The notes under the pieces: model-generated
What the model saw: the letters and a program-made list of their open reading frames with translations, nothing else
What the model was told of the DNA's origin: nothing
The model's database searches: none
NCBI RefSeq assembly: GCF_000011805.1
Contig: NC_006840.2
Strand: one strand, 5' to 3'
From: Aliivibrio fischeri ES114
Lineage (GTDB): Bacteria; Pseudomonadota; Gammaproteobacteria; Enterobacterales; Vibrionaceae
DNA length: 32,000 bases
Part shown: piece by piece, positions 11,728 through 25,277 of the stretch
How positions within the stretch are numbered: the first letter of the stretch is position 1
Layout of the letters: each line of letters starts with the position of its first letter
Made by a program: the position numbers and the translations under genes

Positions 11728-12360
11728 ATGAATTTTGACTTGAATGCTATTCCTTCTACCTTTGATTTAGGACACATTGTCCTGTTCGGTACATCTGCTC
11801 TATTTGCATTATTGTACATAACGAAGAAAGGTAAAGCGGTAGAGATCGAAAAAACGGTTGAAGTCGAAAAAATCGTCGAAGTTGAGAAACCTGTAGAAAA
11901 AATCGTCGAAATCGAAAAAGTTGTTGAAGTTGAAAAGATCATTGAGAAAATCATCGAAGTTGAACCAAAAGTAAAAGCATCAACGCCTGAATCTGCTTTA
12001 CAACTATTAGCTTTATTACAAAAAGAAGCACGTTTTATTGACTTTATGCAAGAAGACCTAAAAGGCTTCGCAGATGCAGAAGTTGGCGCTGCAGCTCGTG
12101 TTATTCATGAAGGCGGTCAGAAAGTATTATCTGACTACTTTACTCTTACTCCAGTTCGTACAGAGGAAGAAGAGTCTCGTTTATCTATTCCTGCTGGTTT
12201 TAACCCATCGGAAATTCGTCTAACGGGTAATGTTGTTGGTGAAGCACCATTTAATGGCACATTAATTCACCGTGGTTGGAAAGTAGCAGAAGTGAAGCTA
12301 CCAAAGCTGGCTGAAGGTTATGACGCAACAATCGTTGCTCCAGCAGAGGTTGAACTGTAA
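11728..12360 (+). CDS. DUF2760 family protein: N-terminal TM anchor, VE[VI]EKx repeat linker, conserved C-terminal domain
   Basis: 210 aa. TM segment LGHIVLFGTSALFALLYIT. Repeat at residues 38-80. C-terminal ALQLLALLQKEARFIDF...TLIHRGWKV matches my memory of DUF2760 (PF10816). The stop overlaps the next ATG (TAATG). Confidence 0.85.
   Translation: MNFDLNAIPSTFDLGHIVLFGTSALFALLYITKKGKAVEIEKTVEVEKIVEVEKPVEKIVEIEKVVEVEKIIEKIIEVEPKVKASTPESALQLLALLQKEARFIDFMQEDLKGFADAEVGAAARVIHEGGQKVLSDYFTLTPVRTEEEESRLSIPAGFNPSEIRLTGNVVGEAPFNGTLIHRGWKVAEVKLPKLAEGYDATIVAPAEVEL
11839..11967 (+). repeat. In-frame 18-nt (occasionally 12-nt) tandem repeat encoding VEIEKT VEVEKI VEVEKP VEKI VEIEKV VEVEKI IEKI IEVEP
   Basis: Read directly: GTNGAARTNGARAAANNN units repeated about 8 times inside the DUF2760 gene. 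Confidence 0.9.
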
Positions 12361-14180
12361 TGGAACAAGCTAAATACAGCATTGGTATCGATTTAGGTAC
12401 AACTCACTGTGTACTTTCATACGTTGATTTACATGATGAAGACGCAAGCGTTCAAGTAATGCCAATCCCTCAACTCACCGCTCCAGGTCAAGTTGAAGAG
12501 AAATCGCAGCTGCCTTCTTTCATGTATCAAGCACATGAAGCTGAACTATTAGAAGGTGATACAAGCCTTCCTTGGACAACCAAGCCAAACGCAATTGTTG
12601 GTAGTATTGCCCGCAACCTTGGTAGTAAAACGCCAATTCGTTTGATTGCAAGTGCGAAAAGCTGGTTATGTCACGGTGGCGTAAACCGTCGTGAAGCATT
12701 CTTACCACTAAACAGCCCAGAAGAAGTGATCAAAGCATCGCCTCTTGAAGTAACAAAACGTTATTTAGAGCATTTACAAAACGCTTGGGATCACCAAAAT
12801 CCAGAGCACCCTCTAAATGAACAAGACATTACAATTACGGTACCTGCATCATTTGACCCTGCTGCTCGTGATTTAACAGCAGAAGCGGCAAATAATCTTG
12901 GTTTCCGTAACTTAACGCTTTTAGAAGAACCACAAGCAGCAGTATACAGCTGGATCAAAAATAACGATGATTCATGGCGTGACCAAGTATCGGTTGGTGA
13001 TGTTATTTTAGTTGTTGATATTGGTGGTGGTACAACGGATTTATCATTAGTTGCTGTTACTGAAGAAGAAGGTAATTTAAGCCTAAACCGTGTTGCGGTA
13101 GGCGACCATATTCTTCTTGGTGGTGACAACATGGATTTAGCCCTAGCTTATCGCTTAAAAATGAAGCTAGCGCAAGAAGGTAAGCAGTTACAACCTTGGC
13201 AAATTCAAGTGATGACACACGCTTGTCGTGATGCAAAAGAAGCACTATTAAATGACTCAGAATTACGAGCAGTACCGATTGTGGTTCCTAGCCGTGGTTC
13301 TAAATTGTTAGGTGGCACGCTACAAACGGAATTAACTCAAGAAGAAGTACAACAAACATTAGTTGAAGGCTTCTTCCCTGTAGTTCCTGTGACTGAGCAC
13401 CCAGTTCAATCTGCACGTGGTGCATTAACTCAAATGGGTCTTCCTTATGCACAAGATGCAGCGGTAACTCGTCACCTTGCTAGCTTCTTAACTCGTCAAC
13501 AAGCAGCAACTGATGAAGTATTTGGTCAGCAAAACGAATCTGATTTTATTAAACCAACAGCCATTCTTTTAAATGGTGGTGTTCTAAAATCAAACCTACT
13601 TGCAGAACGTCTACTTGGTATTATTAATCAGTGGTTAATCGATGGCGAAGCGGAAGATGCAAAACTTCTTGAAGGTCTTGACCTTGATTTAGCTGTTGCG
13701 GCTGGTGCTTCTTACTACGGCTCTGTTCGTACCGGTAAAGGTGTTCGTATCCGTGGTGGTATTGCATCAAGCTACTATGTTGGTATCGAAAGCTCTATGC
13801 CTGCGATTCCTGGAATGGAACCACCAATGGAAGCATTATGTGTTGCTCCATTTGGTATGGAAGAAGGCTCGCACGCCGATGTACCTAGCCAACAATTTGG
13901 TTTGGTGATTGGCCAACCGGTGCAATTTAAGTTCTATGGTTCAACGACTCGTCGTGATGACCAAGCCGGTACACATTTGGATTTCTGGATGCCTGAAGAG
14001 CTAGAAGAATTACCTACAATTCAAGTAACTCTACCTGTAACGGAAGGACGTACCGCAGGTGAAGTGGTTCCTGTTCGTTTAGCGTCTAAAGTAACAGAGC
14101 TTGGTACTCTATATCTTGAAGCGATTGCTGCAGATAGTGGTGAGAAATGGCACGTTGAGTTTGATGTTCGTGAAGCGTAA
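12360..14180 (+). CDS. Non-canonical Hsp70-family ATPase (606 aa): NBD plus beta-rich C-terminal domain, no helical lid
   Basis: IGIDLGTTHCV, ITVPASFD, LLEEPQAAVY, VVDIGGGTTDLSLV, GDHILLGGDNMDLALA, LLNGGVLKS, DLAVAAGASYYG. Ends KWHVEFDVREA. ATG overlaps the upstream TAA. Confidence 0.9.
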   Translation: MEQAKYSIGIDLGTTHCVLSYVDLHDEDASVQVMPIPQLTAPGQVEEKSQLPSFMYQAHEAELLEGDTSLPWTTKPNAIVGSIARNLGSKTPIRLIASAKSWLCHGGVNRREAFLPLNSPEEVIKASPLEVTKRYLEHLQNAWDHQNPEHPLNEQDITITVPASFDPAARDLTAEAANNLGFRNLTLLEEPQAAVYSWIKNNDDSWRDQVSVGDVILVVDIGGGTTDLSLVAVTEEEGNLSLNRVAVGDHILLGGDNMDLALAYRLKMKLAQEGKQLQPWQIQVMTHACRDAKEALLNDSELRAVPIVVPSRGSKLLGGTLQTELTQEEVQQTLVEGFFPVVPVTEHPVQSARGALTQMGLPYAQDAAVTRHLASFLTRQQAATDEVFGQQNESDFIKPTAILLNGGVLKSNLLAERLLGIINQWLIDGEAEDAKLLEGLDLDLAVAAGASYYGSVRTGKGVRIRGGIASSYYVGIESSMPAIPGMEPPMEALCVAPFGMEEGSHADVPSQQFGLVIGQPVQFKFYGSTTRRDDQAGTHLDFWMPEELEELPTIQVTLPVTEGRTAGEVVPVRLASKVTELGTLYLEAIAADSGEKWHVEFDVREA

Positions 14181-14213
14181 TTTGGATATTATTCTTCGCT
14201 AGTTACGTATCTT

Positions 14214-14252
14214 AAGAGTTCAGTCACCGTTATGGAGTCTGAACTCTTTTAC
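14214..14252 (+). terminator. Intergenic hairpin plus short T-run between the two Hsp70 paralogues (partial terminator/attenuator candidate)
   Basis: AAGAGTTCAG (14214-14223), 15-nt loop, CTGAACTCTT (14239-14248), then TTTACT. Confidence 0.45.
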
Positions 14253-14368
14253 TATATATCCTTTGTATTTTTGCTGTTGCCTTCTTATACCAATGTAACT
14301 AATTAGATGTTCATTATTAATATTGATATTACTAACAGCTACAAGACTAACATTACGTCGGGGTTTTT

Positions 14369-17185
14369 ATGAGTTCTTCTAATCGCTATTTAATTGGTAT
14401 CGATCTTGGTACTACTCACACCGTTGTTGCTTATACTGATATTTCTCTTGGTATTGAAACTAGCCCAATTGAAATCTTCAATATCGACCAATTAATTGGA
14501 CCGGGTGAAGTGGCTCGTAAACCCCTACTTCCATCATTTCGTTACCATGCATCACAAAGTCAAATCACTGAAAATGATCTGACACTGCCTTGGAATGTAA
14601 AAGCAATTGAAGGTGAGATAAAGAACGCCATTATTGGTGAGTGGGCTCGTGAATTAGGGTCAAAAGTAGAAGGTCGCCAAGTCGTAAGTGCTAAGAGTTG
14701 GTTATCTCATACTAAAGTTGATCGCACCTCCAATATTCTTCCTTGGGCTGGCGCTGATGATGTCGAAAAAGTCTCACCTATTGTTGCCAGTGCTAGTTAT
14801 TTAAACCATGTACGCCAATCGTGGAATTACCACCACCCAGATGCCCCAATGGAGCTTCAGGAAGTGGTTGTTACCGTACCGGCATCTTTTGATGAAAGTG
14901 CACGCTCATTTACGATTGAGGCTGCAAAACTGGCAGGCCTTGATAAAATCATCCTATTAGAAGAGCCACAAGCGGTGTGTTACGACTGGTATCATCATCA
15001 TCAAGATACGGCAAAAGAGATTTTAAAAACCATCCCACTAATGGTGGTATGCGATGTTGGCGGTGGTACAACCGATTTAAGCTTAATTCAAGCGCGTTTT
15101 AATAAAGACGAATTAGCACTTGATCGCATTGGCGTGGGCGATCACTTAATGCTAGGTGGCGATAACATTGATTTAGCGCTAGCACATTTAGCTGAACAGC
15201 GCTTAGATAGCGGTAAAAAAATGACGGCAGCCGCGTTAACCAAGCTTATTCAACAAACACGTAAAACAAAAGAGCGTTTGTTATCTGCTAATGCTCCCGA
15301 ATCAGGCCACATTACCCTACTTGGATCTGGTTCTAAATTATTAGGTGGCAGTCGTAAAGTCGAGTTGACCAAAGAAGAAGTTCATCAAATTGCACTGGAT
15401 GGATTCTTACCACTGACTGACTTTAATGACCGTCCAAATCAACGTCAAACTGCTGTTGTTGAATTTGGCTTACCTTACGCTTCAGATCCTGCTATCAGTA
15501 AACACTTAGCTCAGTTCTTAGATAATCATAAAGAAGTATCAGCAAAAGCATTAGGTTGGGATGATGCTGAATTGGCTAATCACGAGGACCGTGCAATACC
15601 TGTAGGTTTGCTGCTTAATGGCGGTGTTTTTAATAGCCCATTATTGGCTGAACGTTCTCTTCAACTACTTAACAACTGGAAAGGTGACACTGTCACTCAA
15701 CTATCAAACCCTCATCCAGATCTAGCGGTTGCTTATGGCGCAGTTGCTTATGGCAAGGCACGTCATGGTGCACAATTAAAGATCGGTGGAGGCTCCGCTC
15801 GTTCATTCTATTTACAGCTAGAAGAGAAAAACAAACAACCTCAAGGTCTGTGTTTATTGGCTAAAGGCAGTGAGGAAGGTGAAGAGATCCGCATGACGAG
15901 TCGTCGTTTCTCGTTAACCTTGGGAGAACCTGTTCGTTTTAATCTACTTTCTACAACAAAAGATCAACTTGCAACCTCGGGTATGATCACTGAATTAGCT
16001 GATTCTAGCTTTGTTAGCCTACCTCCTTATGTGGTAACACTAGAATCTAGTAAATCAAAAGATGAACTGCATGCAAACCAAAAAGATCGCGTTGAAGTAA
16101 CCTTAGCTTGCCAATTTACAGAAGTCGGCACCATTAAAATTGAATGTGTTTCTGTTGAGGACGATTCACAGCGTTGGTTGGTTGAATTTGAAGTACGTAA
16201 TCAGGCGTCTAATAAAAGCGCTAACCTTGCGGATCAAGTTAGCCTTCCCCCTCGCCTACCTAATGCTATAGCAAGCATTAAAGAGGCTTATGGTGGCAGC
16301 AAACAAAATCCAAATGCCATCAAAGCTTTTAATAAAAATATTGAAAAGCTAATTGGTAAGCGTGAATCATGGGATCTTATTACGTCTCGTGAACTTGCAA
16401 CAGCATTACTTGATAGTAAAAAACGTCGTCGTCGCTCTGACAAACACGAACAAAATTGGTTAAAAATGACGGGGTTCGCTTTACGCCCCGGTTTTGGCTA
16501 CCCTGCTGATGAATGGAAGATATCTCAAGCATGGGAAACCTATCAACAAGGTATTCAATTTGAATCGAAACAATCTTGGAACGATTGGTGGACATTCTGG
16601 CGTCGGATCTCTGGTGGTTTAAATCAAGAGCAACAAGAAACCATTTTAGCTGATATGGCGAAATACCTGCATCCTGGTTCTTTACGTAACCCAAAAACAT
16701 TAGAAGAAGCCAGTAACAAAAGTTATGAAGCTATGGTACGACTTGCCGCAGCACTCGAACATTTGGACGTAGAAGATAAAATGCTGATTGCATCTTGGGT
16801 ATTAGGTCATGCTAAAAATGGAAATCAACCGCAAGTACATTGGTGGGCATTAGGCCGAATTTGTTCACGTTCACCATTCTATGGAAGCCAGCATAATTTA
16901 GTTCCACCAAGCCAAATATCTCAATGGCTACCAACATTATTAGAGCAAGATTGGAAAGAACAGCCCATGGCTGGTTTTGCCGCAGTAATGATGGCTCGCT
17001 TAACCGGTGATAGAACCCTTGATGTTTCAGATGAATATCGAGAAAAAATCATCGAAAAATTGAAAAAAGATCGCTGCCCACAAAGCTGGATTGAATTAGT
17101 ATCAAGCCAACAAGCATTAACAGAAGCAGACTCTAAACGCTTATTTGGTGACGCATTACCCGCAGGCTTACGTTTAATTAATTAG
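14369..17185 (+). CDS. Non-canonical Hsp70-family ATPase, long form (938 aa): NBD, beta-rich domain, ~330-aa Trp-rich helical C-terminal extension
   Basis: IGIDLGTTHTV, VTVPASFD, LLEEPQAVCY, VCDVGGGTTDLSLI, GDHLMLGGDNIDLALA, LLLNGGVFNS, DLAVAYGAVAYG. The beta domain ends RWLVEFEVRN. Then KKRRRRSDKHEQNWLKMTGFALRPGFGYPADEW... to the end. Confidence 0.9.
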   Translation: MSSSNRYLIGIDLGTTHTVVAYTDISLGIETSPIEIFNIDQLIGPGEVARKPLLPSFRYHASQSQITENDLTLPWNVKAIEGEIKNAIIGEWARELGSKVEGRQVVSAKSWLSHTKVDRTSNILPWAGADDVEKVSPIVASASYLNHVRQSWNYHHPDAPMELQEVVVTVPASFDESARSFTIEAAKLAGLDKIILLEEPQAVCYDWYHHHQDTAKEILKTIPLMVVCDVGGGTTDLSLIQARFNKDELALDRIGVGDHLMLGGDNIDLALAHLAEQRLDSGKKMTAAALTKLIQQTRKTKERLLSANAPESGHITLLGSGSKLLGGSRKVELTKEEVHQIALDGFLPLTDFNDRPNQRQTAVVEFGLPYASDPAISKHLAQFLDNHKEVSAKALGWDDAELANHEDRAIPVGLLLNGGVFNSPLLAERSLQLLNNWKGDTVTQLSNPHPDLAVAYGAVAYGKARHGAQLKIGGGSARSFYLQLEEKNKQPQGLCLLAKGSEEGEEIRMTSRRFSLTLGEPVRFNLLSTTKDQLATSGMITELADSSFVSLPPYVVTLESSKSKDELHANQKDRVEVTLACQFTEVGTIKIECVSVEDDSQRWLVEFEVRNQASNKSANLADQVSLPPRLPNAIASIKEAYGGSKQNPNAIKAFNKNIEKLIGKRESWDLITSRELATALLDSKKRRRRSDKHEQNWLKMTGFALRPGFGYPADEWKISQAWETYQQGIQFESKQSWNDWWTFWRRISGGLNQEQQETILADMAKYLHPGSLRNPKTLEEASNKSYEAMVRLAAALEHLDVEDKMLIASWVLGHAKNGNQPQVHWWALGRICSRSPFYGSQHNLVPPSQISQWLPTLLEQDWKEQPMAGFAAVMMARLTGDRTLDVSDEYREKIIEKLKKDRCPQSWIELVSSQQALTEADSKRLFGDALPAGLRLIN

Positions 17186-17345: not shown

Positions 17346-17648
17346 ATGATTGAAAGCGCCACGTTGGCGATCATAGTGTTACTTTATTTTGTTGGTTGGT
17401 CCCGTTTCGGTACTCGAGAATTACGCAATGCAGCTAAGAGGATGAGTGATATCGCCTCTGTTCCACAAGAGCTGATTATTGAATGGATTATGTATAATAA
17501 ACAGATATTGGATATCAATGAGTTTCAACGTTTTATCATCCATTTAAATAAAGCCGACACCGAAAACTTAAAGCATGAACTAGATAGCTTTTCTCATTAT
17601 CTTGAAATTCACGCTCCCGAACACATAATTTCAATTAATCGGGTATGA
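17346..17648 (+). CDS. Hypothetical small protein with one N-terminal TM helix
   Basis: 100-aa ORF. AAAGGT 8 nt upstream of the ATG, hydrophobic ATLAIIVLLYFVGW, strong terminator directly downstream. No family recognised. Confidence 0.55.
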   Translation: MIESATLAIIVLLYFVGWSRFGTRELRNAAKRMSDIASVPQELIIEWIMYNKQILDINEFQRFIIHLNKADTENLKHELDSFSHYLEIHAPEHIISINRV

Positions 17649-17653
17649 CATAT

Positions 17654-17690
17654 AAAAAAGCTCATTGCTTTCACAATGAGCTTTTCTTTT
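17654..17690. terminator. Bidirectional rho-independent terminator
   Basis: AAAAGCTCATTG (17656-17667), 6-nt loop, CAATGAGCTTTT (17674-17685), then TCTTTT. Confidence 0.85.
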
Positions 17691-17711: not shown

Positions 17712-18185
17712 CTAACTTCTTGTTCCTAATTTCACTTTACCTTTAGAGTTAAACCATAAGACTTGTGATTTCTTCTTACCAATTAATAATGGTAAATCAT
17801 CATAAAATAAGAAGTTCTTCCATGTTTTCTTAAACGTTCCCCATGAAGTTTCAATTAAGTTATATTTCTCATAACAAAAATAAACGGTTACTTCATCAGA
17901 CCAATCGATAAATTCCAACACTTCTTCAGGTAATGATTCATTATCGCTGTCCCAACGATGTTGCCAATCAATTTCATTTGTCCACGAACTTTTCTTCATT
18001 GGCCACTCTTTCGAGCCAAAATGATCCGCGGTTGGGCTATTGCTGCTGATAAAGTCATTCCAAACTTGAGCTGATTTTGCTTGAGTGAATGGTTTTATTA
18101 ATGGTAGCAAGGCATCATCAACCGGCATTGATTGATGAGTAAAAATCCACTTGCGATTGTATTCATCTAAAGGTAAATAGCTCAT
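17712..18185 (-). CDS. DUF2947 family protein (Trp-rich, function unknown)
   Basis: 157 aa. The N-terminus YLPLDEYNRKWIFTH and overall Trp-rich composition match my recollection of DUF2947 in Vibrionaceae. Confidence 0.7.
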   Translation of the reverse strand: MSYLPLDEYNRKWIFTHQSMPVDDALLPLIKPFTQAKSAQVWNDFISSNSPTADHFGSKEWPMKKSSWTNEIDWQHRWDSDNESLPEEVLEFIDWSDEVTVYFCYEKYNLIETSWGTFKKTWKNFLFYDDLPLLIGKKKSQVLWFNSKGKVKLGTRS

Positions 18186-18343
18186 AAACTCTTTCTATAG
18201 TAAGGCATGTAGCTCTATTCTATCGTCTTTTTTTATTAAGCCCAAATAAGAATATCTAACAATAGCTTGATTTTTATCATCCTCCCCCTCATAACAGTAG
18301 TATTGAATAGTCAAAATTATTCAAAACCATAAATATAACGAAA

Positions 18344-18414
18344 GATTACACATGCCTTCTTGCTTCCATTTATGTGTAATCGCCATTACAAGGATTATTA
18401 AATGATTACGCATG
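18344..18414 (+). promoter_or_regulatory. Three copies of GATTACRCAT (direct, inverted, direct) spanning the leader and start codon of the CARF-nuclease gene
   Basis: A = GATTACACAT (18344-18353). B = ATGTGTAATC (18372-18381), the perfect complement of A. C = GATTACGCAT (18404-18413), overlapping the ATG at 18402-18404. The AAGGA SD lies between B and C. Confidence 0.4.
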
Positions 18415-19553
18415 TTGGCATTTTAGATCAAGACCCCGTACGTCTTATCACCCCCCTTTTAGACTTATCTGTTAAAGGGGAACACATGGTATTTATCGGC
18501 GATGAAACTCAAAAAGAGATGTTTCATCGACTCGAGTCAATTCTAAAATATAAAGGGATCAGTTCTGATTTTTTTGAAATCCCAAATATTGTTGATACCC
18601 ATGCAATCAAACAATCATTACAAGCACTTGCTGCTGAAATGAAACTTCACTTTAGTGATATCAAATTAAATGCGAGTTGTGGTCTTCGTCACCGTCTTCT
18701 TTCTGCCTATGAAGTGTTCCGTTCATATCATTGGCCAATCTTTGTTGTAGAGCCATACAGTGATAAATTATGCTGGTTATACCCAGATGGTCGCAAACAA
18801 AAACACGTTGCTGATAATATTCGCTTGAGTGATTATCTTGCTATTTTTGGGGCTCGTTGTGAGTTTTCAGAAACTGAATTACCAGAAAGTATCGATAAGC
18901 GCTTAAGAGAACTATGCCAACGCTGGGCAAGCAACGCATTAGAGTTAGGCCCGGGCTTAGCAACATTAAACTACTTAGCAACCACCTGTCGTAAAGAACA
19001 ACGTTTAGATGTTGAAGTAACAGAGAAACAACAGAGCTATAAAGAACTTAATATGCTACTAACTGACCTTGTAGAAACAGGGTTAGCTACCTATGAAAAC
19101 GGCATATTAACATTCGATTGTGAAGAAGCTCGTCGTTTAGCTAATGGGGAATGGCTTGAAATATTGGTTCACAATACCGTTGTCGATATTCAACAATATT
19201 TACCAACACTGCAAGACCACTCTTTAAATGTACAAGTGCATCGTGAGATTGGTGAAAAAGACGTTCGTAATGAACTTGATGTGGTTAGTATTGTAAATAA
19301 CAAACTGCATATCATTGAATGTAAAACAAAAGGTATGCGTGATGATGGTGATGATACACTTTACAAATTAGAATCATTACGTGACTTACTTGGTGGGCTT
19401 CAAGCTCGTGCAATGTTAGTCAGTTTCCGTCCTTTACGTAATAACGACATTATGCGCGCACAGGATTTAGGCTTAGCTATTATCGGCCCTGATGAATTAG
19501 GCGATCTTAAAAAACACCTTCTTAACTGGTTCTTAGCGGCCGGTGGTCATTAA
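18402..19553 (+). CDS. Stand-alone CARF, winged-helix and PD-(D/E)xK nuclease protein (DUF1887 / VC1899-like, Card1/Can2 architecture)
   Basis: 383 aa. N-terminal Rossmann-like domain with N90-A-S-C-G-L-R96 fitting the CARF signature [DN]x[ST]xxx[RK]. Mid-region LNMLLTDLVETGLATYENGILTF is wHTH-like. C-terminal GEWLE...ELD293VVSIVNNKLHIIE306CK308TKG gives the D...ExK nuclease motif. Confidence 0.8.
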   Translation: MITHVGILDQDPVRLITPLLDLSVKGEHMVFIGDETQKEMFHRLESILKYKGISSDFFEIPNIVDTHAIKQSLQALAAEMKLHFSDIKLNASCGLRHRLLSAYEVFRSYHWPIFVVEPYSDKLCWLYPDGRKQKHVADNIRLSDYLAIFGARCEFSETELPESIDKRLRELCQRWASNALELGPGLATLNYLATTCRKEQRLDVEVTEKQQSYKELNMLLTDLVETGLATYENGILTFDCEEARRLANGEWLEILVHNTVVDIQQYLPTLQDHSLNVQVHREIGEKDVRNELDVVSIVNNKLHIIECKTKGMRDDGDDTLYKLESLRDLLGGLQARAMLVSFRPLRNNDIMRAQDLGLAIIGPDELGDLKKHLLNWFLAAGGH

Positions 19554-19627
19554 TATTTTCAATTAAGATCCTCTCTGATACTAAAAAGATCCTGCTGTGG
19601 GCCTTTTTTAATGCTTTTCAATTCATA

Positions 19628-19661
19628 TAAAAATGCCGCTGATTCACTATGAACCAGCGGC
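19628..19661 (-). terminator. Rho-independent terminator of udp
   Basis: On the minus strand GCCGCTG, 13-nt loop, CAGCGGC, followed by ATTTTTAT. Confidence 0.7.
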
Positions 19662-19688
19662 ACTCTATATTTCTTTGTGCTCTTCCTA

Positions 19689-20447
19689 TTATAGAAGATT
19701 TCGAGCAGCTTCAATTACCACTTTAATTGAACGCGCTTCTGTTTCTTTTAGCGTTGCGTGATCTGGGATTTCTTTTTGAGTACGGTTAATAATTACACCC
19801 GCAACACAACCTGCACGTAAACCAGAGCTTGCACACATAGTTAATAACGTCGCTGATTCCATTTCAAAGTTCAGTACGCCCATGTCTTGCCATTCTTGCA
19901 TAGAGCCTTGGAAACGCTTAACAACACGACCAGAGAACGTGTCGTAACGCTCTTGACCCGGGTAGAAGGTATCACTTGATGCTGTTACACCTGTGTGTAC
20001 ATTTGCACCTTGGTCAACTACCGCTTTACGCATTGCTGTTGCAACGTCAAAGTCAGCAACTGCTGGGAATTCCATTGGAGCAAAATGAAGACTCGCACCA
20101 TCTAAACGAACTGAACCTGTAGTAACAATCATATCACCTACATTCACATGAGGTTGAATTGCACCAGTTGTACCTACACGTAGGAAAGTACGAACACCTA
20201 ATTGAGCAAGTTCTTCAACCGCAATAGATGTTGATGGACCACCAATACCTGTAGAACATACCACAATCTTCTTGCCATCTAGCTCAGCTAAGTACACTGT
20301 GTATTCACGGTGGCTTGCTAAAAACTTAGGGTTTTCCATTTGTTCTGCGATTTTCTGAACGCGTGCTGGATCACCAGGGATGATCGCCATTTCTGCACCT
20401 TGAAGATCTTCTTTTGTTACGCCTAAATGGAATACTGCTGCTGTCAT
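19689..20447 (-). CDS. udp: Uridine phosphorylase
   Basis: 252 aa, collinear with E. coli Udp as recalled: [57 protein letters not shown] 6 nt upstream. Confidence 0.95.
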
Positions 20448-20512
20448 GGTTAGCTCCTTGCGGTTTGTAGGGCCGCGTTAATTAAATTAGTTATATTTGA
20501 TTTGATGTAGCT

Positions 20513-20607
20513 ACTCTACCCAATTAAATGACAGCTTTATGTGACAAATGCCTCAAATGGTATGCTTTCATATTACATTCTTGCAAAGAAAATCGATTGG
20601 CATCACA
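20513..20607 (-). promoter_or_regulatory. CRP/CytR-type udp promoter: two CRP-like sites 52 bp apart, a TTGCAA core between them, TAGAGT -10
   Basis: Site 1 (plus strand) TGTGA-CAAATG-CCTCA at 20540-20555. Site 2 ATCGA-TTGGCA-TCACA at 20592-20607. TTGCAA at 20581-20586. The minus-strand TAGAGT (20518-20513) puts site 1 near -41.5 and site 2 near -93.5. Confidence 0.5.
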
Positions 20608-20640
20608 TAAAAATAGAAAAGCGCTCATAATACGAGCGCT
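20608..20640 (-). terminator. Rho-independent terminator of zntA
   Basis: On the minus strand AGCGCTC, 7-nt loop, GAGCGCT, followed by TTTTCTATTTTT. Confidence 0.8.
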
Positions 20641-20677
20641 TTAATTTGAGTTACTTCACTAATTTATTTCGTTCTTA

Positions 20678-23684: not shown

Positions 23685-25277
23685 TTATGCACTACCTAAC
23701 AAAACGTCGATCAATATTTTCTTATTTTGTTCAACAGAAGACATTACGTTTTCATACCCAGCAGTGTTATTTGTGCGCTCCATTCTATGAATAATAGCTA
23801 GACACTGTTTAATATTCTCTGGGTTTTTCATTAAATTCTTACCTTTCAGCGTTAAAGTAAGAAGCATATAGTTTAAATCTGATGAATACGGATACGTCTG
23901 TCCTATCTTGATCAACTGAAGTCTGTTTTCATCTGCAGATTTTTGAGCTCTAAGCCATTGGTACACTTTATTTAGTTTTTGAAAATGCACCATCGACTGT
24001 TGTAGTAACTGTGGCGAATTCTTTTTGAGGTTCGCTTGATCAAACACTTTATATAAAGCAACACACAACTTCACTTCGCCAGCCATAGCTAAAACACCAA
24101 ATGTAGCAACACGAAATTCATCTGAAGCCACTTTACGCTCAGATAAGAATCGATGATAACAAGTTGCTGCAATTGCTTTTGCTTTATAACGCTTACCTTG
24201 TTTAAACAATTGTCGCGCTATAAAGATATTAATATAACCTTGCAATTCATCACGCTTATCCATTGATACACGTTTTTTCAACGTTATAACTAATTGACCA
24301 AAAAAGCGTCGATATTTTTCTTTATTAAACTGATGATTCGATTTATATACCGTATCAGCAATATCCAAAATCATTTTGTTTAATGTTACTGGTGTAATAC
24401 CAATATGATAAAAACGTTTCATTATCATATTATGAATAAGAGAATGCTCATTATTCTCAATAATAAATGTTAAATACGAATAAAAAGCACTATCACTTTT
24501 TGGATTATTCTCAAACGCTTTTGATAACGACGCTTGCTGCTTACTTTTTTGTTTTGCTTCTTCATATATTTCCGCCAACATTAAATTAGCTTTAAATAAA
24601 TACTTCTTAGAACGCAATAACAACTCAAGAACAGGTATTGCTTTTGGCTTTTCAACCATTTGGCAATACGCCATTAAGTTTTGTGGCATGATTTCGCTTT
24701 TATCATGACGTTGATAAACCTTTTTGAACGTCATAAAGTCTTTTGCTTTATACAGTTCTTCCAACGTCATGTTTAACAGCATTCTATTTTTATATGTGCC
24801 AGTAAACGTTTGTGCTCGCTTGATAAAAGCAGCTTGTGACCCTTTTACTTCCGCAATGAGTTTTTCGATCAATAATGTTAAGTTAAATGACTTTTTAATT
24901 AATTCATCAATATATCCATAATTGATAGGACTATTAACAATAAAATCAGGAAATAACTCCCTAGCATTTAAATCATCAACTTGAGAATCTTCATTTTCAA
25001 TATCAACAATAAAAATAGGTCGCTTACCAAACTTAGCATTCGCTCGTGCGTTATCTACAATTTCAGCAATTACTTCATGCGAAGAGTAATGATATTCAAT
25101 AAAATAATAATCATAGACAGGTAGATCTGATGCTTTCATGCCAAGATTAAAATTATCCGCGCTTTTAAAACCCGCTTTTTGAAAAAATTGACGAATTTGA
25201 GTACTGCGTTCACGTTTTTCAGTAAACACTAAAACATTCATTTGCGGAATACGTCTAATTAATTCGGCACTGCTCAT
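23685..25277 (-). CDS. Hypothetical 530-aa protein: degenerate receiver-like N-terminal domain plus long helical-repeat (TPR-like) region
   Basis: Long uninterrupted ORF. Residues ~13-125 follow a beta-alpha alternation like CheY (NVLVFTEK / YDYYFIEYH / PIFIVDIE / DFIVNSPI) but lack the DD-D-T-K set. The rest is helix-rich with K/L/Y repeats. No family recognised. Confidence 0.65.
   Translation of the reverse strand: MSSAELIRRIPQMNVLVFTEKRERSTQIRQFFQKAGFKSADNFNLGMKASDLPVYDYYFIEYHYSSHEVIAEIVDNARANAKFGKRPIFIVDIENEDSQVDDLNARELFPDFIVNSPINYGYIDELIKKSFNLTLLIEKLIAEVKGSQAAFIKRAQTFTGTYKNRMLLNMTLEELYKAKDFMTFKKVYQRHDKSEIMPQNLMAYCQMVEKPKAIPVLELLLRSKKYLFKANLMLAEIYEEAKQKSKQQASLSKAFENNPKSDSAFYSYLTFIIENNEHSLIHNMIMKRFYHIGITPVTLNKMILDIADTVYKSNHQFNKEKYRRFFGQLVITLKKRVSMDKRDELQGYINIFIARQLFKQGKRYKAKAIAATCYHRFLSERKVASDEFRVATFGVLAMAGEVKLCVALYKVFDQANLKKNSPQLLQQSMVHFQKLNKVYQWLRAQKSADENRLQLIKIGQTYPYSSDLNYMLLTLTLKGKNLMKNPENIKQCLAIIHRMERTNNTAGYENVMSSVEQNKKILIDVLLGSA

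Follow-up and report, generated by a model that had tools for sequence, protein, structure and literature searches.

An orphan VC1899-type CARF nuclease of Aliivibrio fischeri is under strong purifying selection and may be gated by a ligand other than cyclic tetra-adenylate

We analyzed a 32,000-nt stretch of the Aliivibrio fischeri ES114 genome (hereafter the window), focusing on an open reading frame (ORF) at 18402–19553 of the plus strand, which begins with ATG and encodes 383 amino acids. This gene is the A. fischeri ortholog of Vibrio cholerae VC1899, a protein whose structure has been solved since 2004, and its product joins a CARF sensor domain, a winged-helix-like insertion and a PD-(D/E)xK nuclease domain in a single chain. 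Throughout the family, purifying selection on the gene is as strong as on a housekeeping enzyme. Alignments show that the residues contacting cyclic tetra-adenylate (cA4) in related nucleases are replaced and that the remodeled pocket is itself invariant. From these sequence patterns we infer that the protein is functional and not a relic. The reading we favor, to which we give an even chance of being right, is that of a functional nuclease gated by a ligand other than cA4.

Profile and sequence searches assign the coding sequence to the DUF1887 / Can2–Card1 family of CARF nucleases. Pfam model PF09002 (Card1_endonuc) matched residues 240–379 (E = 1.1e-65; 219.7 bits, against a cutoff of 26.4), placing the nuclease domain at 19119–19538, and two PADLOC profiles matched at full length, Csx1 with E = 3e-145 and CARF4--CARF_PDDEXK with E = 5e-140 (residues 1–377). 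A search of the PDB recovered VC1899 itself (1XMX; E = 6e-182, residues 1–383), Can2 (7BDV; E = 3e-27, residues 73–377), Card1 (6WXW; E = 1.6e-9, residues 83–368) and the dual-activated nuclease Cdn1 (8Z4I; E = 2e-6). The A. fischeri and V. cholerae proteins are 69% identical over 383 amino acids with no gaps, and an identical protein is encoded on chromosome I of A. fischeri MJ11 (CP001139.1). The N-terminal Pfam model PF23400, which is precomputed on some orthologs, gave no match at E ≤ 1 on the A. fischeri protein, so the CARF assignment is based on the full-length profile and structure-sequence matches, not on that model. An earlier, sequence-only reading of the window had proposed this ORF, its CARF plus PD-(D/E)xK architecture and a likeness to VC1899/1XMX. 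All three proved correct: the ORF is present with its 383 codons, the motif coordinates given for N90..R96, GEWLE, D293 and E306-C-K308 agree with the translation, and VC1899 is a true ortholog. The profile and structure-database comparison, which that reading had named beforehand as a possible refutation, recovers both domains.

The nuclease domain has a complete set of catalytic motifs, all on the plus strand. From the alignment, G249-E-W-L-E253 (19146–19160) forms the helix with the conserved Glu of the nuclease core, and E306-C-K308 (19317–19325) is the ExK catalytic motif, invariant among the homologs listed. Between them lie the catalytic acidic residues of E291-L-D293 (19272–19280), which match the residues altered in the VC1899 E291A/D293A variant (Zhu et al.). 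E253, E291, D293, E306 and K308 are all present in the A. fischeri protein, and all five are invariant in the orthologs of the core Vibrionaceae clade (hereafter core orthologs). In a set of 41 orthologs, mutually <93% identical, G249, W251, E291, D293, E306 and K308 are 100% conserved; thus the conservation of catalytic residues, a check suggested in the sequence-only reading, holds for every one of them. E291, D293, E306 and K308 are likewise invariant among the homologs listed, with K at 291 in the Ter-linked paralogs discussed below.

The CARF domain, Rossmann-like and spanning approximately residues 1–150 (18402–18851; identified from the full-length matches, with limits set by analogy with Can2), differs from that of canonical cA4 receptors at the positions that form the pocket. 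The loop after strand 1 reads D9-Q-D11-P-V-R14 (18426–18443), where canonical Can2 has S-x-Q-x-x-P, and D9, D11 and R14 are invariant in the 41 orthologs. The signature loop, N90-A-S-C-G-L-R96-H-R98 (18669–18695), corresponds to N-x-T-G-G-T-K-P of canonical Can2 and is invariant from N90 to R98 across core orthologs. The N-x-S-xxx-R signature previously noted at 18669–18689 (N90-A-S92-C-G-L-R96) is indeed there, as a divergent form of the canonical N-x-T-G-G-T-K. More broadly, the canonical cA4 pocket type is S9-x-Q11...P14, V33-S34, N-x-T-G-G-T-K-P and Y115-x-H117, whereas the VC1899 type is G6...D9-x-D11...R14, G33-D34, N-A-S-C-G-L-R-H and V115-x-E117-P. The SthCan2 contacts Ser19, Thr42, Lys99 and Tyr118 correspond to D9, D34, R96 and V115 of the A. 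fischeri protein. Ten residues surround cA4 as modeled in VC1899 by Zhu et al. (PMC7969007), namely D9, Q10, D11, R14, D34, L95, R96, V115, P118 and Q334. All ten are identical in the A. fischeri protein, and eight are invariant in the 41 orthologs, with Q10 conserved in 98% and D34 in 59%. In the pocket, 7 of 9 residues are invariant, against 37% for the entire CARF domain.

Between sensor and nuclease lies a helical, winged-helix-like insertion of approximately residues 160–240 (18879–19121), delimited by AlphaFold, Foldseek and alignment, which includes an invariant stretch, E181-LGPGLATLNYLATTCRKEQ-200. Pfam gave nothing for residues 151–245. A single-sequence AlphaFold model of residues 160–245 (pLDDT 76) has the order helix-helix-strand-helix-helix-strand-strand, and the same region was described by Zhu et al. 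(PMC7969007) as a motif with four helices and two strands. Besides 1XMX, Foldseek returned only weak matches to this model (E 0.09–0.8, TM 0.40–0.47), nearly all of them winged helix-turn-helix domains of the CRP/FNR/NtcA/GntR type. The domain order with a middle segment, as previously proposed, therefore stands, whereas its label as a winged helix-turn-helix, with no Pfam match and non-significant Foldseek matches, is weakly supported by the model.

To assess selection, we scanned species genomes, one per species. At least 280 stretches encode a relative, and 80 loci were kept; all of these are from Aliivibrio, Vibrio or Vibrionaceae, at 69–100% identity. Orthologs also occur in Photobacterium, Grimontia, Enterovibrio and Salinivibrio. 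Within Aliivibrio, the pairwise ratio of nonsynonymous to synonymous substitution rates (dN/dS) is 0.016–0.024 for the CARF gene, 0.018–0.028 for udp and ~0.05 for zntA, values that are approximate since dS exceeds 1. In the alignment of 41 orthologs, 185 of 383 columns are invariant. Low dN/dS together with invariant catalytic and pocket residues makes a pattern that is incompatible with decay.

Parts of this picture have been described for VC1899, the founding member of DUF1887/PF09002, which Zhu et al. (2021, PMC7969007) called an orphan CARF protein. In that study, purified VC1899 did not nick supercoiled DNA, and its RNase activity was very weak and not regulated by cA4, the sole ligand assayed. 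The weak RNase was abolished in a nuclease-site variant. The cA4 contacts conserved in Can1 and Can2 were found to correspond to D9, D34, R96 and V115 of VC1899, and the protein was proposed to be a degenerate relic. Beyond that study, the literature we searched assigns no function to VC1899 or DUF1887. Orphan status, lost cA4 contacts and absent cA4 activation are already published for VC1899 (PMC7969007), and therefore the core observation is not new. New here are the selection evidence, the absence of an operon partner, the genomic contexts of relatives, including a Ter operon, and a covarying leader hairpin.

The sequence-only reading had found no CRISPR-Cas or cyclase partner in 32 kb, and our searches agree. 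A Pfam scan taking in 20 of the window's long ORFs, a repeat search and PADLOC found no cas genes, no CD-NTase or SMODS genes and no CRISPR-like repeats in the window, and PADLOC reported no defense matches there beyond weak partial Hsp70-like ones. The sole repeat found in the window is an 18-nt coding repeat at 11845–11940. Around the orthologs, no cas genes or arrays were detected within 10 kb in 84 genome loci; the search did not extend to the rest of the genome. The context is also unlike that of a CBASS effector (cyclic-oligonucleotide-based antiphage signaling): there is no CD-NTase or SMODS gene in the window, and the only cyclase is a CHASE-GGDEF protein that is a neighbor in the Aliivibrio lineage alone. 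The doubt already voiced about a link to that cyclase was thus well placed. Functional links to the CHASE-GGDEF gene, the DUF2947 gene, a 100-codon ORF (orf100) and the Hsp70-like cluster were rejected as well, as these are neighbors only in Aliivibrio and a few relatives.

Comparison of loci across the family identified no conserved operon partner. In Aliivibrio, the gene sits between a DUF2947 gene on the opposite strand upstream (17712–18185, minus strand) and the convergent udp downstream (19689–20447, minus strand). In Vibrio, a gene for a methyl-accepting chemotaxis protein (MCP) lies directly upstream on the same strand, separated in most loci by 130–200 nt that contain the MCP terminator; the upstream block there is one we take, from its sequences, to be thiK-lpoB-ycfL-ycfM-hinT. 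The upstream neighbor thus varies by lineage. Downstream, udp-zntA(-CBS) is found in Aliivibrio and many Vibrio, and fadR-nhaB-dsbB-ftsK-lrp elsewhere; in V. metoecus and V. mimicus, which stand here for the V. cholerae group, it is fadR-nhaB-dsbB. Lacking a conserved partner, the gene therefore forms a transcription unit of its own within the core chromosome. This is in line with the earlier description of a core-genome rather than an island gene, given its presence in at least 280 species genomes and the udp/zntA/CBS genes downstream in many.

The transcription unit carries a conserved structure in its leader. In A. fischeri, a 5'-leader hairpin at 18344–18381 (plus strand), identified by folding and covariation, has an 11-bp stem, GATTACACATG / TATGTGTAATC, and a 16-nt pyrimidine-rich loop, CCTTCTTGCTTCCATT. 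It ends 20 nt before the ATG and folds with –11.5 kcal/mol (z = –1.68). Most Vibrio and Aliivibrio orthologs have a hairpin ending 16–20 nt before the ATG, with lineage-specific stems: GGCTTGC/GCAAGCC, GGGTAC/GTACCC, TGGCCG/CGGCCG and ACTTGCTG/CAGCAGGT (one G-U pair). RNAalifold, run on a plain MAFFT alignment, called 6 pairs, 5 of them with compensatory changes. Paired cells amounted to 94.9%, compared to 84.8% in shuffles (0 of 500 reached the observed value) and 21–45% in slid controls, and the covariation score was 0.376 versus 0.183 in shuffles. Loops are 81% C+U, against a background of 48%. Rfam has no family for this leader, and detected zero families in the window.

A –10-like box, TATAAC, can be read at 18334–18339 (plus strand), a few nucleotides upstream of the hairpin. 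Aligned ortholog leaders keep a box at this site, which reads TATAAT in the other Aliivibrio and, for Vibrio, TTATATGG; a simple promoter scan did not report the TATAAC box. With this conserved element just upstream, the mRNA probably carries the hairpin at its 5' end, taking the start position from the box. Downstream of the hairpin is a Shine–Dalgarno element read as AAGGA (18390–18394, plus strand), and AAGGA or GAGGA is found in 65 of 66 ortholog leaders. We considered whether the loop might act as an anti-Shine–Dalgarno element, but the predicted loop–SD duplex (–5.0 kcal/mol) is no stronger than those of shuffled loops (–5.7 kcal/mol). A DNA operator palindrome was likewise rejected, as the G-U pairs and lineage-specific compensatory stems are indicative of an RNA structure on the plus strand.

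To place the protein among its relatives, we used HMMER against 1.84 billion representative proteins and obtained 1244 relatives. Three with ~35% identity, P0126, P0127 and P0129 (Alteromonas gilva), are encoded inside type III loci that carry RT-Cas1, Cas2, RAMP genes, and Cas10 or STIV_B116-type ring nuclease genes. For Shewanella gelidii, Paraphotobacterium marinum and P0124, the relative is an orphan among housekeeping genes. P. marinum, with a reduced 1.4-Mb chromosome, keeps an orphan ortholog (L088, 10001–12245) beside a CBS-domain gene and tfoX. No plasmid or phage homologs were found in PLSDB (E ≤ 1e-10), INPHARED or IMG/VR. A neighbor-joining tree, made by a fast distance method in which the deep branching order is unreliable, gave 98% bootstrap support to a core Vibrionaceae clade that includes the A. 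fischeri protein, and 100% to a sister clade of four paralogs. Core clade, sister clade and Paraphotobacterium together received 100%, with the type III-linked group outside. By these sequence comparisons, the VC1899-type protein arose inside a group to which type III-linked nucleases also belong. Can2-type relatives in RT-Cas1 loci (L085, 10001–11143; L089, 10001–11140; L090, 684–1862), two of them with STIV_B116-type ring nuclease genes, have a non-canonical pocket with D11, S92, R96 and sometimes D9, and without the T-G-G-T-K loop. In the literature we found no biochemically characterized member with this pocket type.

The sister clade gives a lead to the class of ligand. It is represented by four distinct paralogs at five loci: one in V. 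owensii (CP025796.1), one in Photobacterium leiognathi, and two distinct proteins encoded by three metagenomic contigs. On one side of these loci is a terD-terC-terB-terD-terD block, with a second terD at the far end in four loci (L091 ends first). On the divergent side are tightly spaced genes for PRTase_2+TRSP, a HAD-like hydrolase, StiP+PELOTA, a TIM-barrel C-C lyase and DUF4236 (missing from L091), with the CARF nuclease gene last. The Ter loci with a terminal CARF gene, island-borne, span L162 4855–11185, L163 4838–11170, L164 4828–11176 and L091 3831–8981, and tyrosine recombinases flank the loci. Some VC1899-family genes had been placed in Ter-containing clusters before (Makarova et al. 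2014), and published work predicts that the product of the Ter-associated module is a nucleoside or nucleotide derivative serving as a threat signal. The Ter-linked paralogs are 38–41% identical to the core protein overall and keep 8 of 10 pocket residues. The two clades have the CARF residues G6, D9, L15, G33, C93, L99, W111 and C124 in common, and a pocket signature (G6, D9, [DE]11, R14, G33, N-A-S-C-G-x-R, W111, E117) that is rare elsewhere. The paralogs thus form a sister clade with the same pocket signature but sit in an island operon, whereas the A. fischeri gene is in the core chromosome. They have no leader hairpin, and neither do the type III-linked relatives. Metagenomes from JGI yielded no further Ter-linked members; the 68 loci found there are core-type or distant relatives.

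In the mechanism we propose, the protein would be a homodimer, by analogy with Can2 and Card1. The composite CARF pocket, which lies on the dimer axis, would take up a small molecule whose binding repositions the two metal-dependent nuclease domains and lets them cut RNA and/or DNA. The molecule would be something other than cA4, its contacts having been swapped for an invariant set, D9, D11, R14, S92-C-G-L-R96, V115 and E117-P118. A nucleoside- or nucleotide-like metabolite, as predicted for the PRTase/HAD/C-C-lyase module of Ter systems, is the best lead to its class, because a sister clade with the VC1899-type pocket is the terminal gene of a Ter operon. In most Vibrionaceae, which are without the module, the core protein might sense a related endogenous or invader-derived compound. 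Expression would probably be controlled or stabilized after transcription start via the leader hairpin. That the ligand is a Ter-type, PRTase-derived nucleoside-like messenger rather than a cyclic oligoadenylate (cOA), with the core protein gated by it or by a related compound, is a tentative proposal, which we regard as unlikely to be right in this specific form.

Several observations weigh against the gated-nuclease reading or its Ter extension. The Ter association concerns paralogs, not the core gene. All four paralogs have K for E291 and have lost E250 and E253, keeping D293, E306 and K308; with an altered nuclease site they may be inactive nucleases and may serve the operon in another way. 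Among Vibrionaceae the PRTase module has a patchy distribution: it was found in V. owensii and three Photobacterium species, and then in Enterobacterales. Aliivibrio is absent among the top 120 homologs of the module, and neither its genes nor terD, terC and terB turned up in the window or less than 10 kb from a core locus. The PRTase_2-TRSP gene occurs on 2552 plasmids, whereas the VC1899-like gene is on no PLSDB plasmid (E ≤ 1e-10). Since these plasmid modules are without a VC1899-like gene, the Ter system does not generally need the CARF nuclease. In a Klebsiella plasmid Ter locus (L166), for example, a CopG-family gene follows DUF4236 where the CARF gene would be. The occurrence of the same module without a VC1899-like gene elsewhere makes the CARF nuclease a Vibrionaceae-specific addition. 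Regarding the pocket, D9 and D11 are also found in some type III-linked relatives, and therefore an acidic pocket alone does not exclude a Cas10 product; pocket invariance could also reflect a dimer-interface or folding constraint. VC1899 showed no DNA nicking and a weak, cA4-independent RNase in vitro (PMC7969007), and published work names no ligand for either the core or the Ter-linked clade. Finally, folding energy alone supports the A. fischeri hairpin weakly.

Known systems help to frame these arguments. VC1899 has the same pocket residues, catalytic residues and orphan status as the A. fischeri protein, and differs in host genus and in its upstream neighbor, a same-strand MCP gene in Vibrio versus an opposite-strand DUF2947 gene in Aliivibrio. 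Can2 (SthCan2/TsuCan2, 7BDV), Card1 (6WXW) and Cdn1 (8Z4I) have the CARF4 plus PD-(D/E)xK architecture and the nuclease core residues in common with it, and by analogy a common mechanism is likely, in which ligand binding shifts the nuclease domains of a dimer. These are, however, cOA-activated ancillary nucleases of type III systems, whereas the A. fischeri gene has no type III locus nearby and is inherited vertically in the core genome. The cA4 contacts of Can2 and Card1 (Ser, Thr, Lys, Tyr; N-x-T-G-G-T-K) are replaced in the A. fischeri protein, and VC1899 is not activated by cA4. CARF domains can act as sensors without Cas10, as in RtcR and Csa3. Yet the output of those proteins is transcriptional, through an AAA+ sigma-54 activator or a winged helix-turn-helix, and they belong to different CARF clades, while the A. 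fischeri protein has a fused nuclease. RtcR-type CARF domains probably bind distinct ligands (Makarova et al. 2014).

An alternative to gating is that the protein is a ligand-independent housekeeping RNase or DNase, active in RNA turnover, repair or recombination, with the CARF domain as a dimerization scaffold only. In its favor, the ligand-free RNase activity of VC1899, weak as it is, disappears in the active-site variant, and the core-genome site among metabolic genes would suit such a role. There is also a precedent outside a CRISPR context in TieA (HP0986) of Helicobacter pylori, which has a DUF1887 domain per InterPro and non-specific DNase activity. TieA is distantly related, likened here by description only, and is reported to be a secreted or host-interacting factor. 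H. pylori is not known to have a CRISPR-Cas system. A mere scaffold does not explain why pocket residues are more strictly kept than the CARF domain (7 of 9 versus 37% invariant), nor why the pocket signature persists in paralogs recruited to a small-molecule operon; moreover, a non-specific nuclease that was always on would be toxic in the absence of gating. We consider this explanation unlikely, though it retains a real chance.

A second alternative keeps the gating but changes the ligand: with type III or CBASS systems brought in by mobile elements, the protein would be a standing receptor for what they make, be it cA3, cA6, S-adenosylmethionine-AMP (SAM-AMP) or a CBASS product. VC1899 was assayed with cA4 only, and the family member Cdn1 binds several cOAs. 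The ~35% identical relatives that share D11, S92, R96 and partly D9 sit in type III loci, and Vibrio type III systems are on mobile elements, that of V. metoecus being paired with a NucC effector. But type III systems are known from only 15 Vibrionaceae species, on mobile elements, and were judged not ancestral (McDonald 2019). Strong selection on the receptor would therefore need a partner that is rarely present, and systems so rare and mobile cannot explain a family-wide gene. In addition, G6, L15, G33, C93, W111 and other residues that set the core clade apart are missing in the relatives linked to type III loci. On balance we find this improbable.

Less probable still, with a small chance in our estimate, is a non-catalytic, ligand-responsive regulator that binds DNA or RNA through the winged-helix-like insertion, as Csa3 does, possibly autoregulating through its leader. 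The topology of the insertion, its weak structural matches to CRP/FNR/GntR DNA-binding domains and the invariance of its 'LATTCRK' helix are consistent with this idea; the conserved leader hairpin could be the binding site, and nuclease activity in vitro is very weak. The structural matches are, however, non-significant (E > 0.05), and catalytic residues invariant across core orthologs are hard to explain without catalysis. Csa3-like CARF–winged helix-turn-helix factors have no enzymatic effector, whereas the A. fischeri protein has a complete nuclease domain. Furthermore, the stem sequence varies by lineage while the protein helix is invariant, which argues against sequence-specific recognition of the stem. 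A degenerate relic, a former type III effector 'cast adrift' with its function gone (Zhu et al. 2021), would fit the lost cA4 contacts, the lack of cA4 activation and DNA nicking, the weak RNase and the missing CRISPR partner in the window, but we regard it as very improbable in view of a dN/dS of ~0.02, as low as that of udp, 185 of 383 invariant residues with the catalytic and pocket positions frozen, the fact that at least 280 species genomes retain the gene, its chromosomal position being stable, and a conserved leader structure of its own.

Elsewhere in the window, the Pfam families are those of transport, metabolism, chaperone-like proteins and regulators, plus the one CHASE-GGDEF protein. 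The genes include a LysR regulator, a DUF2760/Hsp70/Hsp70-DUF3731 trio, DUF2947, udp, zntA and a CBS protein. The trio is an Aliivibrio-wide cluster at 11728–17185 that encodes a DUF2760 protein (210 amino acids), an Hsp70-like protein (606 amino acids) and an Hsp70-like protein with DUF3731 (938 amino acids). The 18-nt repeat noted above, a tandem repeat of six codons, sits inside the DUF2760 gene, and both Hsp70-like proteins give weak partial matches to the PADLOC candidate PDC-M61B. The 100-codon ORF (17346–17648) matches no Pfam family and is evolving far more quickly than the genes around it (dN/dS 0.15–0.21 within Aliivibrio); a terminator-like hairpin follows it at 17656–17685. A 530-codon ORF on the minus strand (23685–25277), with no Pfam or PADLOC match, is 85–100% identical within Aliivibrio. 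The intervals between the CARF gene and udp and between udp and zntA (in the region 19554–20677) are strain-variable insertion points in Aliivibrio. Their cargo includes an HD_5-domain (HD-GYP-like) gene in L003, an MCP gene in L011 and, in L012, a 7.6-kb cluster of cytochrome c, SCO1, PCuAC, porin and LysR genes. We considered the insertions between the CARF gene and udp as defense islands and rejected this, their cargo of cytochrome c, copper-chaperone and MCP genes being metabolic rather than defensive.

CARF effectors are understood almost wholly as receivers of cyclic oligoadenylates made by Cas10. For the VC1899 family, the question now shifts from why a relic persists to which molecule, other than a cOA, is sensed. 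Our analysis excludes decay and a syntenic partner, and it names a candidate source of the ligand, extracts of cells in which the Ter operon of V. owensii or P. leiognathi is expressed. If the ligand is indeed of the Ter type, this would be the first CARF effector shown to be rewired from Cas10 signaling to a different chemistry. It would join orphan CARF nucleases to the Ter system, two poorly understood stress or defense systems, and would supply a protein handle and a practical assay for the long-predicted Ter messenger. Should the Ter lead fail, there would still be a well-conserved orphan nuclease in two genetically tractable organisms, A. fischeri and V. cholerae.

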